From: a virus
Lineage: Duplodnaviria; Caudoviricetes
Reading direction: 5' to 3' (one strand)
Length of the DNA stretch: 30,496 bases
IMG/VR virus record: IMGVR_UViG_3300031973_000258
Span: 1-30,496 of that record
Position numbers and translations under genes: made by a program. Of this stretch, positions 13,525-26,239 are shown piece by piece (position 1 is the first letter of the stretch; every line of letters begins with the position of its first letter). The notes under the pieces were generated by a model. The model was not told the DNA's origin. It saw only the letters and a list, made by a program, of their open reading frames with translations, and made no database searches.

Positions 13525-13956
13525 ATGCCATTTGAAATGATAACCATGCTAGGGTCTACCGTACTTGGTGGCATCATGAGTATATGGTCACAAAGCATAA
13601 AAGCAAAACAAGCAGAACAAAAGATGTTATTGCAACGAGCTGAAGTACAGACTGCAGCTTTTAAAGAAGCAAGAGAATATGAGAACGTAGGATTTCAGTG
13701 GACTAGAAGGATCATAGCATTAACTGCTATATTCGCTATTGTAGTTCTACCTAAGATACTACCATTAATTAGTCCTGATGCTCATGTTATTGTAGGATAT
13801 ACAGAATGGAAGCCAGGCTTCTTATTCTTTGAAGGTAAAGATGTAATGCAGTGGGTGCCTATGGCGCATAAAGGTATAGTGATTACCCCACTAGATACTA
13901 ACTTAGTTGCGGCTATTATAGGCCTATACTTTGGAGGATCGCTAGTTAAAAAATAA
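13525..13956 (+). CDS. Putative holin (3TM, GTA-holin-like)
   Basis: AAGGAG RBS; three hydrophobic segments; W-TRR before TM2; IIGLYFGGSLVKK C-terminus. Confidence 0.55.
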   Translation: MPFEMITMLGSTVLGGIMSIWSQSIKAKQAEQKMLLQRAEVQTAAFKEAREYENVGFQWTRRIIALTAIFAIVVLPKILPLISPDAHVIVGYTEWKPGFLFFEGKDVMQWVPMAHKGIVITPLDTNLVAAIIGLYFGGSLVKK

Positions 13957-14171
13957 TGTATTGGGTAATTACGGTAATGCTAATGTTTCATGGTACAGAT
14001 GTACTAGTGGAGAGAGAATATAAACTTAAACAGTTTAATGACGATTGGAGTTGTCATGAATATATTCACGAGAATAAAATTGATCTGTTAAAACAACATG
14101 TTCTTGACTACCCTAACCAATTAAAAAGTTTTGAATTTTATTGCGAAAGCAGATACGGAGAAGAAGTATGA
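13956..14171 (+). CDS. Small protein with a hydrophobic N-terminus and two Cys
   Basis: TAATG coupling to the upstream gene; MYWVITVMLMF; F...WSC and FYC motifs. Confidence 0.65.
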   Translation: MYWVITVMLMFHGTDVLVEREYKLKQFNDDWSCHEYIHENKIDLLKQHVLDYPNQLKSFEFYCESRYGEEV

Positions 14172-14896
14172 TAAGAAGTATAGGCATAGCTGTAATAATT
14201 ACAGTATGTATGTTGTGGGCCTTTAGCGCATTAATGGATTCTGCTATGGCAGACGTAACTGGTGCTGGTAGTACCACAAATGATCAGGTAACTTCTGGAT
14301 CATCATCAAGTAATACGGCTATAACAGGAGGATATCACAGTGAAGCAACAACAAACTATCAATCAGGATCTTCTCAAAATACAACCACAACCAACACAAC
14401 CAACAACAATAACAACTCCTATACAGGAGACACTAGAACTGTGCCTTCAGCATCTGCTCCTGGCATCTCTGCTATGTCTCAAGATCTGTGTACTGTTGGC
14501 GTTGGTATAGGAATACAAAAGCCACTTATAGGCGGCAGTATTGGTATTACTAAACGTGATATGAATTGTGAACGTATGAAACTGGCTAAACTTCTTTTTG
14601 ATTTTAATATGAAGGTTAGTGCTGTTGCTATATTATGTCAAGATGCAAGAGTATTTCAAAGCATGGTCATGGCAGGCACACCTTGTCCGTTCCAAGGAAA
14701 GATAGGTGATGAAGCTCTAGCTGAATGGAATAAATATGATCAGCAAAGACCAGACTACGAAGAATATACTAAGGCTCTTAATTATATGCAAAGAGTTGAT
14801 AATAAAATTGCAATAGAATTAGAACAAGAGGCTAACCCAGATGAACAAATTATTACTGACGGTAACGGCAATCGTATTAAACTCGGTAACGATTAG
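14168..14896 (+). CDS. Exported Cys-containing hypothetical protein (start moved to ATG 14168)
   Basis: ATGA overlap with the upstream stop and GGAG RBS; signal-peptide-like MIRSIGIAVIITVCMLWAFSALMDSAMA; S/T/N-rich linker; four Cys in the mature region. Confidence 0.75.
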   Translation: MIRSIGIAVIITVCMLWAFSALMDSAMADVTGAGSTTNDQVTSGSSSSNTAITGGYHSEATTNYQSGSSQNTTTTNTTNNNNNSYTGDTRTVPSASAPGISAMSQDLCTVGVGIGIQKPLIGGSIGITKRDMNCERMKLAKLLFDFNMKVSAVAILCQDARVFQSMVMAGTPCPFQGKIGDEALAEWNKYDQQRPDYEEYTKALNYMQRVDNKIAIELEQEANPDEQIITDGNGNRIKLGND

Positions 14897-16667
14897 TGCG
14901 GATACTGTTGTAGTCATACCTGACACGCCCAATGTGGGAGATTTTACTACTGTTACAACTGTGACAACAGGTAATCCTGTTACTAGTAATAACTTGATAA
15001 GCCAAGATTTTGCTGATGGTACTTGGAATGGTACTATGTTTCCAGATAATTCTGATCTCAATCACTCAACTTGGTTAACTGGTAAAGAGGGTAAGTATGC
15101 AGAAACTTCAATAGACTCAGAAGATTATGTTTCACTAGAAGAACTAAAACTAGGTTTTACTTCAAACTTTATGGCTAATATCAGGTGGTGGAATCAGGTT
15201 GAATCTACTGTTACCATGACACAATCTATTAGTAATGGTATCGACACCACAACACAAAGCACAACTTTTGAAGATACTACAAACTCTAGCTATCAGGTAA
15301 ATCCATATGGTAATACTTTAGTAGTTAATCCTGATGCCAATATGACACACGGCACGGCAACCTATAGATTTGATTTTGATATTATAAACAACAATCAAGC
15401 AGGTTATAATGGAGGGCATGCGGGCGTGGATGTGCGAGATCCATCTGCCAGGATAGACTATACCGCTTTATCTAGTACTACTATAAGTGAGATAACATAT
15501 TGTTGGCAACAGACACCGCCAACGTGTCCAGGTCAGGAAGAGATAGAAGATGTTCAGGATATTATTGAAGAGATAGATACTATTATAGTTGACTTTGAAG
15601 TGCCAGAAGATACATTTTTACCTGAGTATGTGGAGATAGACTATGAGTTTAATAATATCTTTGAAGATGAAATTATAATAGAAGAAGATACATTTGAAAT
15701 TTTAGCACTTGATAAATTTTTTTTTGAAGAGGATTACTTTCAAACTGACTATTACGAAGAGCCTGAATTGGAAGTCTTTTTTCCAGAAGATATTATGTTG
15801 GTAGAAGAAATAGAAATGTTTGATGCGCTACCACCAATAGAAATGTTTGAAGAAATGCCAGTAATTGAAGAGATATATGAGGCAGTGCCTGAAACAATGT
15901 TTGTAGAAGAATTTACAGACGAAATGCAAGAGGAGTTTATAGATGAAGTTGAAGAATATTTTGAAGAGCCTATGGAAGAAATTGCCATGGTTGAAGAAGA
16001 AGTTGTGCCTATGCAAGAAGAACCCAGTATGCCAGTGCAAGAAACAATCCAAGAAGAAGTCGTACAAGAAGAAAGTATCCAAGAAGAGGTTATCGAAGAA
16101 GAACCAACAGAAGAGATAGCAAGTGAAATTGAAGAGCAACCCAGTAGCGAAGAGCCTACTGCAAACGAACCAGAACCAACAACAGAAGTTGCCGAACAAG
16201 AAGAAGTTATCGAGGAGCCAATTGAAGAAGGACCTACAGAAGTTGCAGAAGAGCCAGGAACAGAACCTAAAGGAGACGTGGAAGTTGATCTAGATATTAA
16301 GGTTGCAAAGATTGAACAGGCTATACAAAGTAAAATAAAAAATGTTGCACAACAAATAGATGCAACACTAACGGTTATAAATGAAGTGGTCAGTAGAGAA
16401 ATGATATCTCAAGAACCTGATATGTCATCTTACTTTAATACTAATTTGGCATTGTTTGATACTAGGCAATTGCCATCAGGCAATCAAGATTTTTTTCTAC
16501 AAGCTAGCCTTGCTAGCTACAGTAAACCTATTTACGTTGCACAAGTAAGTATAGCAGATACAGATCCTGTAGTGCAATATCAAATTAAAGTAAACAACGC
16601 AAAACAAAAAACAAATGAAGCATATAAAAAATTAAAGGAGTTATTAAATGCAAGGAATATTCAATAA
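14841..16667 (+). CDS. Exported protein with a beta-rich N-domain, extremely acidic linker and helical C-domain
   Basis: Signal-like MNKLLLTVTAIVLNSVTISA; about 250-aa Glu/Asp-rich tract; coiled-coil-like C-terminus. Confidence 0.75.
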   Translation: MNKLLLTVTAIVLNSVTISADTVVVIPDTPNVGDFTTVTTVTTGNPVTSNNLISQDFADGTWNGTMFPDNSDLNHSTWLTGKEGKYAETSIDSEDYVSLEELKLGFTSNFMANIRWWNQVESTVTMTQSISNGIDTTTQSTTFEDTTNSSYQVNPYGNTLVVNPDANMTHGTATYRFDFDIINNNQAGYNGGHAGVDVRDPSARIDYTALSSTTISEITYCWQQTPPTCPGQEEIEDVQDIIEEIDTIIVDFEVPEDTFLPEYVEIDYEFNNIFEDEIIIEEDTFEILALDKFFFEEDYFQTDYYEEPELEVFFPEDIMLVEEIEMFDALPPIEMFEEMPVIEEIYEAVPETMFVEEFTDEMQEEFIDEVEEYFEEPMEEIAMVEEEVVPMQEEPSMPVQETIQEEVVQEESIQEEVIEEEPTEEIASEIEEQPSSEEPTANEPEPTTEVAEQEEVIEEPIEEGPTEVAEEPGTEPKGDVEVDLDIKVAKIEQAIQSKIKNVAQQIDATLTVINEVVSREMISQEPDMSSYFNTNLALFDTRQLPSGNQDFFLQASLASYSKPIYVAQVSIADTDPVVQYQIKVNNAKQKTNEAYKKLKELLNARNIQ

Positions 16668-16926
16668 ACTAGCTAGTTATGCCGCACTCGCAGGCGTTAT
16701 TGGAGCCATTGGTGGAGGCTTTATGGCGTGGGGTGAGTTTAATAATAGGATAGCACAGTTAGAAAATACAGAGTTTGTAATAAATCAAGAAGTAGATTTA
16801 TCTGATATTATAAAACAATTGGAAGCACTGAAAGGTGATATCAAAATTAATGGGGCTGCATTAGAATATCTTGATGCAAAGATAGAAGAACTAAAAGCTA
16901 TGCAATCAAATCCATTACTGAACTAG
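16648..16926 (+). CDS. Protein with an N-terminal TM anchor and a coiled coil
   Basis: AAGGAG RBS; YAALAGVIGAIGGGFMAWG followed by heptad repeats. Confidence 0.7.
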   Translation: MQGIFNKLASYAALAGVIGAIGGGFMAWGEFNNRIAQLENTEFVINQEVDLSDIIKQLEALKGDIKINGAALEYLDAKIEELKAMQSNPLLN

Positions 16927-16934
16927 GAGCAAAC

Positions 16935-18152
16935 ATGGTAGACACATTAGCACCAAAAAGAATATTTACTCAAAGAGATTTAGATAAAAGTTTAGTACAG
17001 CCAACGCCTGTTGGTCAAAGTATTATGGCACCTGCATCTAATGTACTTGATACGACACCTGATGTTAGCACACAAAAAAGTTTAACGGATACTCCACAAC
17101 CAGATTATGTTGTAGACAAAAATCAAGTATTTAATATGATGCAAAATTTACAGAAAGCATCAAGATCTAGAGTTGCTGAAACTAGAGACACAGTTAAATC
17201 ATCTGAAGAAACTACAAAAGAAAAACAAACAGGCATGCGTACTGAAAGACAAGAGACACCTCAAAGTGGTAGTTTGGTAATGAGACCTGTCGAGTATGCA
17301 GCTGATGGTGTGAAAGATAAAGAAGTAAGTGGCCCAATACTTGTTGGAGAAAAAGGTGCTGAACTTGTAGTGCCAACTGGAGATGGTAAAGTTAGTATAC
17401 TAGATGCTAAGACTACTAGTGGATTGATGATGCCTATGAAAAAAGCTGAAAAAGGAATGGATGATATTAATATAGCTGGTGCTATGAAATCAGATGATGC
17501 ATACACAGATTTTAATATTACAAATTTTTTACTTAAAGATAGAGAAAGTGATGCTCAAGAAAATTTAGAAAAGTTTGTAGATGTTGTGCATAATATAGAA
17601 AGTAGCAGGGGTAAAAATTTAAATAATAAATCTTCAGCTGCTGGAGATTTTCAATTTAAAACTCTAGTGGATCCTGATGATCCTACATCAACAAAAGGAT
17701 CAGCCTTTATGACTGGATTACAAAGAGTAGAAAATTTTTATAAGGCAAACAATCAAACTGTTCCTTACTGGGTACAAGAGGCAAGACAACACAACGATCC
17801 AAATAAATTAAGTTATAAGGAACAAGAAGAATTATTTTTAGTTAACTTACAACAACAAAAAGGCACTGATGATTTGATTAATAAAATGTTAGAGGGTGAC
17901 ATAGAAGCTTCAAAACAATTATACGGACAATTTCATCACACTAAACCTGAAGTTTTAGGTAATCCAAGAGTACAAGATATATTTGATCGTGCATATTTTG
18001 ATACTAAAAAAGGTGCAAGAAAATTTACTGATAGATCTTTAATGTCCATGTTACCAGAAGGAATAACCAATGCGAGAGAGTTTAAACAATATATTGAATC
18101 TGGTTCTGGAGGGTCTATTGGACCTCAAGCTCCTAAAAGAAAAAAACCCTAA
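16935..18152 (+). CDS. Putative virion-associated lytic transglycosylase/lysozyme-fold protein
   Basis: AGGAG RBS; VHNIESSRG...SSAAGDFQF matches SLT motifs I and II (catalytic Glu-Ser; AxGxxQ); also carries a VGEKGAELVVP motif. Confidence 0.6.
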   Translation: MVDTLAPKRIFTQRDLDKSLVQPTPVGQSIMAPASNVLDTTPDVSTQKSLTDTPQPDYVVDKNQVFNMMQNLQKASRSRVAETRDTVKSSEETTKEKQTGMRTERQETPQSGSLVMRPVEYAADGVKDKEVSGPILVGEKGAELVVPTGDGKVSILDAKTTSGLMMPMKKAEKGMDDINIAGAMKSDDAYTDFNITNFLLKDRESDAQENLEKFVDVVHNIESSRGKNLNNKSSAAGDFQFKTLVDPDDPTSTKGSAFMTGLQRVENFYKANNQTVPYWVQEARQHNDPNKLSYKEQEELFLVNLQQQKGTDDLINKMLEGDIEASKQLYGQFHHTKPEVLGNPRVQDIFDRAYFDTKKGARKFTDRSLMSMLPEGITNAREFKQYIESGSGGSIGPQAPKRKKP

Positions 18153-22894: not shown

Positions 22895-22974
22895 TAGATA
22901 ATATGACCTAATATTATTATATAAAGTATTACGCCAGCCATAGCTAAATTAAACCAAAATTCAAATAAATTCAC
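22891..22974 (-). CDS. Possible 27-aa single-TM microprotein
   Basis: GTG overlaps the polA stop (GTGA); MNLFEFWFNLAMAGVILYIIILGHIIY*; purine-rich AAGGGTGG upstream. Confidence 0.45.
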   Translation of the reverse strand: MNLFEFWFNLAMAGVILYIIILGHIIY

Positions 22975-25034
22975 ATTACCACCCTTTCTTTTTTTAAGGA
23001 AACTTCATTCATTTCTAACCAATTATCGCCTATCTTCAGCTCCGTGTCAAGTGGTACATTGAACTCAACTTTATAAAAGTCATACAAAGAATCAATAACA
23101 TTTCTAGTTGCTTTGTCTAGTAGATCCGTCATTAATTCTATCTCATTTGGGTGCGCATCTACAACTATGGAATCGTGCACAGTATTTATTAATAAACTTT
23201 TTACACCCTTATCTCTCATCATTTTGTAAGCATTGATACATGCTATGGGTACTATATCAGCAGTTGCAAAACCTTGAACTGGATAGTTCTTTATCTGTGT
23301 GGAATAACTAGAGCCACCCCATGCCTGTCTTTGTGCATACGGAAATGAATACTCACGACCTGATGGTAGCTTTACTTTCTTAAACTCTATAGCTGTACTT
23401 TGTAAAGTCTCATGCCACTTTGCTATGTCTTTGTACTTCTCAAGAAATGCTTTGTAGTATCTTTTCTCACTATCACTACCTGACATGCCACCATACAAAG
23501 GTTTGAATGTATGTGCTTTTGCATCTTGCCTACTCACTCCAATAGTATCTGCGGTAAACTGATGTACATCTACACCATCATCTATATCTTTCATGCCCTG
23601 CTTATCCTGTGCTAAGAATACAGCAGTCCTAAATTCTAATTGTGAAAAATCTATCTCCATAATTTTACCACCCTTAAACCTGGAAGATATAACTTTACGA
23701 ATAGGAAAAGTATTACCTCTTGGTTGGTTCTGAAAGTTGGGATCACGACTTGATAGTCTTGCTGTAGCTGTAACACACTGCATAAACTTAGGATGCAATA
23801 CGCTATCCTCATTTACATGATCTCTTATGCCATTTACAAATGTATTTAGATATGTATCTATGGCATTGTATCTGATAATTAAATCAACAAACTCTTTCAT
23901 ATCTCCTTGCGCCCTCATAGATAACTTCTTCAGTGTATCTCTGTCTGTTTTAAAGCCACCCTCTGCTACCTCTGAGACACCAACAGGCATCTGATTAAAA
24001 CCTGCAGTTCTGTTAAGCTGTAAATAAATTACTCCTTCTCCGTTGCAATGAGGGCACTTTGTAAGATTCTTAAATGGTTCTCCATTAACTTTAAATCTTC
24101 TAATTAAACCTTTACCTTCACAGTGACTGCACTGTGCTGCTAATGTCTGCTTAATTGTTTTTGTGTTTAATGCTACTAAATCTCTAAACTTAGACTTTGA
24201 TAGTGTGGGTCTGCGTTTCTTTCTCTTGGTAAATTTATCTATGCCTATGTTAAATGTCTCTGCCCACTTTTTTTTATCTATAACTTTTCTAGAGTAGATC
24301 AGCCAAGATAATTGCTCTGTGCTAGCAGGATTGATAGGTGTATCTCCCATCTTCTCTCTTATAATCTTTTTTATTTCCTGTGCCAGTCTGCCAAACTCTT
24401 CTTTAAACTCTTGCTCCACAGCATTCAATGCATTTAGGTCAATGTTTATGCCATTTATTTCCATATCTGCAAGCACTGGCAGAAATTCATTCATCATTTT
24501 GGCTGATTTAAGTAAGGGTTTGTTACCTTCTTTCTTAAAATCTACCATCTGTGCATCAAACAAAGCTCTTGTAGATCTAACATCTTGCCTACCATACTCT
24601 TCAATAATACTCACAGGTATATCTTCAAATGATATTTTGCGTTTCATATAGTCATCTACTGCATCCGACTTCTGAGATATGCTCCTGCGTTTACATATAT
24701 CTTTTAGTGATAGTGGCTTTCTTAATCCACGAAGTAATATATACTCACCTATCATGGTGTCGTACAATCTGCCAGTGTATTTGAATCCTGACTCCAGTAG
24801 CCACACTAAATCAAACTTAATGTTGTGGCCAACAAGTAGTGTAGTCTTATCTAGTATATCTTGAACTGCCTTGTGATTAGATTGTATATCAAAGCTCTCG
24901 TGATTGTGATTAAAAAAATAATACTCATCATTAACTCCAATACTAACTAGGCAATTGTTAGGATTAAATGGTAGTGGATCTACTTTGCCATCCACGATTT
25001 GAAAGCTGGTCTCTACATCTAATACTGTAATCAT
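22971..25034 (-). CDS. polA: Family A DNA polymerase (3'-5' exonuclease + polymerase) with a DnaJ-type zinc-finger insertion
   Basis: ExoI LDVET, ExoII GHNIKFD, ExoIII Y..QD; TATARLSS..PNFQNQP; motif A DFSQLEFR; motif B RQDAKAHTFKPLYG; motif C VHDS; CSHCEGKG and CPHCNGEG. Confidence 0.95.
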   Translation of the reverse strand: MITVLDVETSFQIVDGKVDPLPFNPNNCLVSIGVNDEYYFFNHNHESFDIQSNHKAVQDILDKTTLLVGHNIKFDLVWLLESGFKYTGRLYDTMIGEYILLRGLRKPLSLKDICKRRSISQKSDAVDDYMKRKISFEDIPVSIIEEYGRQDVRSTRALFDAQMVDFKKEGNKPLLKSAKMMNEFLPVLADMEINGINIDLNALNAVEQEFKEEFGRLAQEIKKIIREKMGDTPINPASTEQLSWLIYSRKVIDKKKWAETFNIGIDKFTKRKKRRPTLSKSKFRDLVALNTKTIKQTLAAQCSHCEGKGLIRRFKVNGEPFKNLTKCPHCNGEGVIYLQLNRTAGFNQMPVGVSEVAEGGFKTDRDTLKKLSMRAQGDMKEFVDLIIRYNAIDTYLNTFVNGIRDHVNEDSVLHPKFMQCVTATARLSSRDPNFQNQPRGNTFPIRKVISSRFKGGKIMEIDFSQLEFRTAVFLAQDKQGMKDIDDGVDVHQFTADTIGVSRQDAKAHTFKPLYGGMSGSDSEKRYYKAFLEKYKDIAKWHETLQSTAIEFKKVKLPSGREYSFPYAQRQAWGGSSYSTQIKNYPVQGFATADIVPIACINAYKMMRDKGVKSLLINTVHDSIVVDAHPNEIELMTDLLDKATRNVIDSLYDFYKVEFNVPLDTELKIGDNWLEMNEVSLKKERVVM

Positions 25035-26239
25035 ACTCTATACCTTGATAGTTGTGGTTCGATATTACAAGTTATCTCTCCATGATAGCCTGATATCTTA
25101 TTCTTACTTATACACATAACTCGAGTAGTATCAAGCGAATCTAAAGATCCATGCTTACCAATGCCTATAATTAAATCTGCCTCTGCAGCTTTACCAGTCT
25201 TTGAGTTCTCCATCATATCAAAAGATATTCTAGTCTTACCATGTGCGTCTGCTGATGCTTGTGATATTGCTATCACACAACACTCATGTCGTTTTGCTAT
25301 CTCTCTTGCTCCAGTATATACTGCTCTAAGTTTTTCATCTGTTCTTGTAAAGTTGCCAGACACACCTACCTTATCTAACTGATCAATAATGAGGATGTCA
25401 GGTTTGTTGCTACTGCAAAAACTGTCAACGTCATCAATAGTCCAATCAACAGTATCCATAAGTTTAACATTATCTTTTATCTCCTTCCATTTTTCTTTTG
25501 CTAAATCTAAATTATCGGTAATCTCATCTCGTGTCATACCTGTGTGCGCATTAATTACTCTCATCTGAGTTCGGATTGCAGGTTCCTCATTAATTAACGC
25601 ACACACTTTTGCACCTTGCGATGCAAATCCTTTTAGCCCACCAACAAGATTAACCCAGAATGCAGTCTTGCCTGACTCTGGCCTTGCAAAAACAATAACT
25701 AAATTACCTGGACCAATGCCTGGAACTTGTTCATGCAAACTTGGTAGATTAAATTCAAACTTAGTTTGTACATCTAAAGATTCTAATAACTCTGGTATAT
25801 CCTCCGTAACTGATTCATGCTCATCTGTATCTTCATCCGTATTATCTAGTAACTGTTTGATTTCATTAAACGATTTGTCCTGCCCGTTAAATATATCTGT
25901 AGCTATAACTGCCACCTTGTGTGCAAGATTTCTTTTGTATACTGCTTCAATGATATCTGTGGCAACAGATTCATTTGGCTCTTGCTCATCTTTTATTTCT
26001 TGTACAAGAGTTTCAAAGTTTAATCTCGCAGCTCGTGTCAATGCAGGATTATATTTTTCTGTGTGTAAATCTATCAGTTCATCTATTGTAAGATCTTCTT
26101 CGTAATCTTTGTGTGCTTTTTCTATTGTAGAATAAAAGTTACCAAGCCCATTGGTAAATGTAGTCTTAGATACTTTGCCTTTGTTTCTTTCGTAAAAATT
26201 TTTTTTAAGTAGTAACTTAATTAATTGTCGTTCCTGCAT
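25031..26239 (-). CDS. SF4 (DnaB/T7 gp4-like) replicative helicase
   Basis: Walker A ARPESGKT, INEE, Walker B IIDQLD, ISQAS, ADLIIGIG, KNK. Confidence 0.9.
   Translation of the reverse strand: MQERQLIKLLLKKNFYERNKGKVSKTTFTNGLGNFYSTIEKAHKDYEEDLTIDELIDLHTEKYNPALTRAARLNFETLVQEIKDEQEPNESVATDIIEAVYKRNLAHKVAVIATDIFNGQDKSFNEIKQLLDNTDEDTDEHESVTEDIPELLESLDVQTKFEFNLPSLHEQVPGIGPGNLVIVFARPESGKTAFWVNLVGGLKGFASQGAKVCALINEEPAIRTQMRVINAHTGMTRDEITDNLDLAKEKWKEIKDNVKLMDTVDWTIDDVDSFCSSNKPDILIIDQLDKVGVSGNFTRTDEKLRAVYTGAREIAKRHECCVIAISQASADAHGKTRISFDMMENSKTGKAAEADLIIGIGKHGSLDSLDTTRVMCISKNKISGYHGEITCNIEPQLSRYRV

Follow-up and report, generated by a model that had tools for sequence, protein, structure and literature searches.

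An apparently undescribed three-gene export module of marine phages

The DNA analysed here, a phage contig of 30.5 kb (30,496 nucleotides; IMG/VR record IMGVR_UViG_3300031973_000258), is referred to below as the window. On its plus strand lie three overlapping genes, named A (A242, 242 amino acids, aa; positions 14168–14896), B (B608, 608 aa; 14841–16667), and C (C92, 92 aa; 16648–16926). They constitute a real, widespread, and apparently undescribed three-gene export module, shared by many marine phages that are not related to one another, and the closest isolate matches of gene A are found in Pelagibacter phages. Two genes precede them on the same strand, H143 (13525–13956) and gene D (D71, 71 aa, two cysteines; 13956–14171), and one follows, S405 (16935–18152). 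Neighbouring open reading frames (ORFs) overlap by 1 nucleotide (H143/D71), 4 (D71/A), 56 (A/B), and 20 (B/C), and a gap of 8 nucleotides separates C from S405. An initial annotation had described four overlapping genes of 71, 242, 608, and 92 aa after H143 as a single cassette; the ORFs and overlaps are present as claimed, while the conserved unit proved to be A-B-C.

The proteins encoded by A, B, and C

Protein A begins with a predicted signal peptide (aa 1–28, ending in AMA and followed by D) and a Thr/Asn/Ser-rich stretch (aa 29–95), followed by a beta-hairpin between Cys108 and Cys134, a helical core containing Cys157 and Cys173, and a C-terminal helix. The mature protein has the four cysteines previously attributed to it, and Cys14 lies inside the signal peptide. 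The structural model (mean predicted local distance difference test score, pLDDT, 86.6) places the hairpin between Cys108 and Cys134 and helices after it. In the column composition of 116 sequences, the hairpin (14489–14569, plus strand; strands 28–36 and 41–49 of the AlphaFold2 model) has almost no charge, one face made of Gly, Ser, and Ala, and a hydrophobic tip, a composition that makes it a candidate membrane-inserting or barrel-forming element. The known properties of small-lumen barrels suggest that it may oligomerize in the outer membrane. Pfam gave no match to A, B, C, or D, and PHROGs gave only families of unknown function, for H143 and A. The model of A found no clear match in the PDB (best Foldseek E 1.4; best VIA Z 3.5, with the C-terminal helix), a result that falls short of establishing a novel fold, and its matches in BFVD are unnamed or uncharacterized viral proteins. 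No fusion of A of 425–2000 aa occurs among 95 candidates, which is weak evidence. The labels "OmpA family", "TonB", "lysozyme", and "opacity protein" carried by relatives received no support in the family scans run. Some relatives, of up to 531 aa, have much expanded Asn/Thr repeat N-termini (loci L177:1103–2698, L200:1510–2859, and L204:5851–7020), hinting at a stalk of beta-solenoid or amyloid-like type.

Protein B comprises a predicted signal peptide (aa 1–20), a lectin-fold head (14979–15464), an acidic linker (15534–16295), and a conserved tail (16296–16667), all encoded on the plus strand. In its model the head is confident, the linker disordered (pLDDT mostly below 50), and the tail partly ordered. 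The predicted fold of the head is the jelly-roll beta-sandwich of galactose-binding-like CBM and lectin domains: Foldseek matched it to the sugar-binding domain of Fbs1 (E 5.7e-5) and to CBM16 (E 1.4e-4), and VIA to Fbs2 (8zuh_A; Z 13.4, root-mean-square deviation 3.0, 151 residues aligned), CBM16 (Z 11.0), and BcsB (Z 10.3). It shares its fold with CBM16, CBM22, CBM61, and the Fbs1/Fbs2 domains, but at only about 10–13% identity and with no catalytic domain attached. The acidic linker reported earlier is indeed there, aa 232–485 being 39% Asp and Glu with two Lys/Arg. The tail consists of a helix, a Tyr-repeat segment, and a second helix, with invariant Y/Y/D residues in an alignment of 55 sequences. 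Heads are swapped between phages: 72 of them fall into nine BLAST clusters, and B ranges in length from 284 to 853 aa. Median conservation over 47 loci is 70% for the B head, 66% for the B tail, and 88% for the A core. The possibility that B corresponds to the variable gene termed "carbohydrate-binding" in metaviromic islands was rejected, since none of the 14 such gene rows in PMC3909814 resembles B by eye.

Protein C (78–218 aa among relatives) has an N-terminal membrane segment, a coiled-coil-like region, and a C-terminal NPL motif (aa 88–90 in the window) that is near-invariant in alignments, its N and P being invariant. The two clades of C are homologous (hhalign 96%). Hydropathy and alignment predict the topology of an i-spanin, that is, an inner-membrane protein with a periplasmic coiled coil, in agreement with the earlier comparison of C to this class.

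Export was judged by a rule of thumb rather than by SignalP, and for C a cleaved signal and an anchor are indistinguishable by this rule. A, B, and C of the window are positive, as are 56 of 74 complete relatives of A and 62 of 72 relatives of B, against one of 29 control ORFs in the window. D71 and H143 are negative, and the best 19-residue hydropathy of D71 is only 1.22. The claim that all four proteins are exported is therefore unconfirmed. No lipobox is present in A, B, C, or D of the window, and the pattern appears in two of 74 A relatives and one of 72 B relatives.

Linkage, distribution, and variants

Two scans of IMG/VR yielded 154 loci, many of them close relatives and five contigs occurring twice. 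Where 3.3 kb or more of downstream sequence is available (95 loci), the tail of B and C follow A in the order A-B-C in 94. The upstream genes are only loosely linked: among 118 loci that extend 1.6 kb or more upstream of A, D stands directly before A in 18 and somewhere in the locus in 64, and H143 is within 1.6 kb in 24. The module also occurs in six Pelagibacter isolates of differing genome types (32–141 kb). Gene A matched 13 GenBank phage records. Profiles detected A-B-C in HTVC033P, Mosig, HTVC023P, HTVC202P, and Baldr; inspection together with partial profile matches added HTVC115P and uvMED S28-C10. The Roseobacter phages CRP-207 and CRP-810 carry A, a different middle gene, and a C ending in NPL, and Ralstonia phage RSP15 carries A alone. 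The A motif is estimated to occur in about 6,500 IMG/VR stretches, and gene A forms 666 clusters at 50% identity. In the freshwater record MW202481 (L086:4949–6577), A and C carry no annotation; B has a head of Cys-rich repeats labelled TonB.

The surroundings of the module vary. It neighbours a primase gene in Mosig, a terminase gene in HTVC202P and Baldr, and lysis genes elsewhere. Of 41 loci with room on both sides, 33 have an endolysin or holin-like gene no more than about 4 kb away. Very basic, Lys/Arg/Gly-rich short genes, in runs of up to five, stand upstream of A in many relatives (L018:3351–5229; L041; L044; L055). In some relatives a 51–53-aa lipoprotein adjoins the module or lies inside it (L131:4756–4914; L152; L155; L156); it has a weak PHROG match to the Cor superinfection exclusion protein (E 0.009). 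Metatranscriptome contigs from four runs cover parts of relatives' A, B, and C; they are not evidence of transcription and were not used.

A scan of GTDB genomes with the A motif gave 63 loci, 37 of them with room. The tail of B and C are both present in 20 of the 24 low-GC loci, which we read as phage contigs binned into metagenome-assembled genomes, and in none of the 13 high-GC loci. Several of the latter are alphaproteobacterial chromosomes in which A stands amid housekeeping genes without B or C, and one is a prophage-like region. These chromosomal homologs (L192:5200–6189; L226:5360–6405; L172:5408–6543; L217:5272–6498) point to A having a role in the envelope other than lysis. In three cases the next gene encodes a small secreted protein rich in Gly, Ser, and Ala (117–138 aa, of amyloid-like composition), and some of the homologs have long Asn/Gly-rich N-termini.

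In eight loci from five assemblies, three extra exported genes follow B, and C comes after this trio in all four loci of sufficient length. The first has pilin-family leads (SCPU/DUF4402/CS1), the second resembles a half-length chaperone, judging by eye, and the third encodes a 110–170-aa Cys-hairpin-Cys protein. Neither of the first two has a Pfam match or a PDB sequence match. The third was considered as a relative of A and rejected: the layout is alike, without profile similarity. No usher-sized ORF was seen in the variant gene chains examined, and the trio is possibly an usher-less pilus system. Comparable trios are present in Vibrio phage pVp-1, one among 50 Vibrio phage records that the third gene matched, and on Vibrio and Mesorhizobium plasmids. 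Sites of such genes, in phage-like contigs, pVp-1, and the plasmids, are L179:7072–8549, L230:3223–4378, L231:4288–6390, and L232:5035–6862; the pVp-1 trio is upstream of a holin gene, and the plasmid trios are near EAL-domain genes.

Neighbouring genes

H143 and S405 had been called holin-like and SLT-like, respectively; neither has a named family match. H143, a holin candidate by its two hydrophobic segments (phrog_38283, function unassigned), and gene D, a loosely linked neighbour, are both outside the conserved core. S405 lacks a signal peptide and is likely virion-associated and outside the module. Across relatives it keeps its N-terminal 165 aa or so while exchanging a C-terminal domain of muralytic appearance, which by eye we take to be SLT-like in the window and lysozyme-like in the gene after C of L093. 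It stands alongside a separate amidase in L007, L022, and L029.

Close relatives have, between D and A, a pair of genes missing from the window (L003:6378–6990): E (120–130 aa, transmembrane segment and coiled coil, phrog_20984) and F (70–74 aa, two or three Cys, phrog_24646). The pair also occurs without A-B-C in HTVC010P, as gp40 and gp42 (L268:25223–25585 and 25937–26149), and is a candidate spanin analogue in its own right. E and C have their first 30 or so aligned columns in common (hhalign 85%). Small Cys proteins whose first strand is hydrophobic and which share an F-x5-C pattern lie near candidate holin genes in several pelagiphages, some without A-B-C (window 13956–14171; L267:36526–36744; L268:23304–23537; L081:4723–4944). 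They belong to at least three families of like layout without significant profile matches; a single family uniting D71, the HTVC010P gp34 type, and the F-type 2-Cys proteins was rejected for want of any significant relation (hhalign below 2%).

The rest of the window holds tail-fibre genes at 1–3.4 kb, large genes without annotation up to 13.5 kb, and, on the minus strand, a replication module of DNA polymerase A, DnaB, and primase. The polymerase (22971–25034) has a DnaJ-like Cys-rich insertion (PF00684, below cut-off). A 47-kb record (completeness 85%) is near-identical to the window.

Possible functions of the module

The reading favoured here, tentatively and with slightly less than even confidence, is that the module, whose three genes are inherited together, forms an envelope-spanning anchor that displays the predicted glycan-binding head of B outside the infected cell, instead of serving to rupture the outer membrane. 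Its basis is the linkage and order of the genes, the signal-peptide-like N-termini, the lack of lipoboxes, and the exchange of B heads, together with three predictions from folding: the Cys-flanked hairpin of A and the lectin-fold head and disordered linker of B. In the outer membrane, the Gly-rich hairpins of several copies of A would come together as a small barrel; the head of B and its acidic tether would pass outward, with the tail held at A; and C, in the inner membrane, would hold A or the B tail via its NPL end. The likely purpose would be to alter either the targets to which the infected cell adheres or the agents able to attach to that cell. If neighbouring host cells or particles were the targets, progeny might be freed near hosts. 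The initial annotation had proposed either a spanin substitute or a complex for surface remodelling or superinfection exclusion; the second, surface-remodelling branch fits better, because of the lectin-fold head on its long tether and the pilin-like genes of the variant.

Several points weigh against this display reading. Many loci are closely related, the eight pilin-variant loci representing five assemblies, and the proximity of endolysin or holin-like genes (33 of 41 loci) would suit a part in lysis. The middle gene of CRP-207 and CRP-810 encodes a different protein without an acidic linker, and B falls into two clades whose tails show only a weak match to each other (hhalign 7.5%). Glycan binding by the B head is predicted, and a jelly-roll fold alone is no proof of it. 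The outer-membrane location of A has the composition of the hairpin as its single ground, and a hydrophobic C-terminus, present in 23 of 97 A relatives, could mean inner-membrane anchoring instead. Binding among A, B, and C and oligomerization of A are proposals.

Part of this evidence would also suit a module confined to the periplasm, in which the B head binds peptidoglycan or another periplasmic glycan while A and C tie B to the membranes, either to block the entry of superinfecting DNA or to stiffen the envelope until lysis. Signal peptides indicate export only as far as the periplasm, CBM-like folds occur in periplasmic proteins too (for instance BcsB), and the hydrophobic C-termini of A relatives agree with it. 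Nevertheless, nine exchanging head clusters and the wide length range of B would better suit an outward target than the conserved peptidoglycan, and the variant with inserted pilin-like genes also speaks against confinement, so that we regard this alternative as doubtful. It is far less probable still that B is an ordinary receptor-binding or decoration protein of the virion with A and C as assembly helpers. No virion proteome was found in the literature searched. The conserved signal-peptide-like N-termini argue against a structural role in the virion, as do the presence of the module across phages of different genome types and the lack of likeness between B and the PMC3909814 genes. In this respect the view that co-inherited exported or membrane proteins are unlikely virion components stands.

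A non-canonical spanin is the remaining alternative, and it appears unlikely: C would be the i-spanin, the hairpin of A in the outer membrane would replace the o-spanin, and B would be an accessory that delays or triggers fusion. Both known spanin types need a lipoprotein, and none was found in 91 of 677 phages (10.1101/515445). A, B, C, and D all lack the lipobox of an outer-membrane o-spanin lipoprotein, and A of the window has neither the N-terminal lipoprotein signal nor the C-terminal transmembrane domain of a unimolecular spanin. The earlier statement that no lipobox-bearing o-spanin is visible held: the two candidates of the window scan are antisense frames inside other genes. No credible o-spanin was detected in nine A-B-C carriers scanned (the window, G001, G002, HTVC033P, HTVC023P, HTVC202P, Baldr, HTVC115P, and S28-C10), and the two lipoproteins of Mosig lack family support as spanins. 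These observations, the topology of C and its conserved C-terminal motif, the nearby lysis genes, and the persistence of C with A where the middle gene is replaced would all agree with a spanin substitute. However, a myovirus fragment (L130/G003) has a canonical pair just upstream of A-B-C (phrog_739 E 1.7e-8, phrog_812 E 1.1e-8), and a complete 328-kb myovirus record (G004) likewise has A-B-C and a phrog_739/phrog_812-type pair. Moreover, no A, B, NPL-type C, or o-spanin was found in HTVC010P and HTVC011P, two phages that we take to be lytic, both listed on HTCC1062, the former having a C-related transmembrane/coiled-coil gene of E type. The occurrence of A alone in bacterial chromosomes, and a lectin head and pilin-like genes that have no role in membrane fusion, also stand against it. 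The two myovirus records and the two SAR11 phages HTVC010P and HTVC011P weaken the spanin branch of the initial annotation. A weak phrog_739 match to C was discarded as a spanin sign; it is unspecific, because a control matched in 10 of 14 genomes.

Compared with known systems, A-B-C resembles two-component spanins (lambda Rz/Rz1; T4-type phrog_739/phrog_812) through C, a small protein of inner-membrane type whose body is coiled-coil-like, whose C-terminus is conserved, and whose gene often lies close to lysis genes; it differs in having no lipoprotein partner, a third, lectin-bearing protein, and true spanins alongside it in two records. A is like trimeric autotransporter adhesins in its signal peptide, in a low-complexity stretch reminiscent of a passenger, and in beta-strands of small residues, which could close into a barrel only through oligomerization, but its model has one internal hairpin with Cys pairs, followed by helices, instead of the four C-terminal strands of the YadA anchor, and YadA is absent from the best 25 of 33 Pfam families for 116 A members. 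The variant recalls chaperone-usher pili (SCPU/CS1) through the pilin-family leads of its first inserted gene, but has a Cys-hairpin-Cys protein in the place of an usher-sized gene, and the window has no pilin-like genes. Curli CsgG/CsgF encoded by Melnitz and pelagimyophages, as described in PMC9004378, are likewise exported envelope proteins in phages of streamlined marine bacteria, with a possible oligomeric outer-membrane pore; A, however, has no Pfam match to CsgG or CsgF, and its partners differ. CsgG is not among the matches listed in the fold searches for A, which leaves that fold possible.

We would further conjecture, with considerable doubt, that A is the pore of a minimal secretion or anchoring system of Cys-stapled beta-hairpin oligomers common to bacteria and phages, with which marine phages display interchangeable lectin heads, and some of them usher-less pili, so that, in a dilute ocean, an infected cell would already adhere to fresh hosts by the time it lyses.

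No description of the module was found in the literature searched, most subscription papers and bioRxiv supplements being outside its reach. Although cultured SAR11 phages possess it, the module corresponds to no named family. The single host HTCC1062 offers a natural contrast between the module-positive HTVC023P and Mosig and the module-negative HTVC010P and HTVC011P. If the spanin substitute were true, it would explain the means by which certain phages without spanins break through the outer membrane. If decoration of the infected cell were true, phage-directed adhesion would become testable in the most abundant host-virus system of the ocean. Under both readings, A is a candidate new outer-membrane oligomer.

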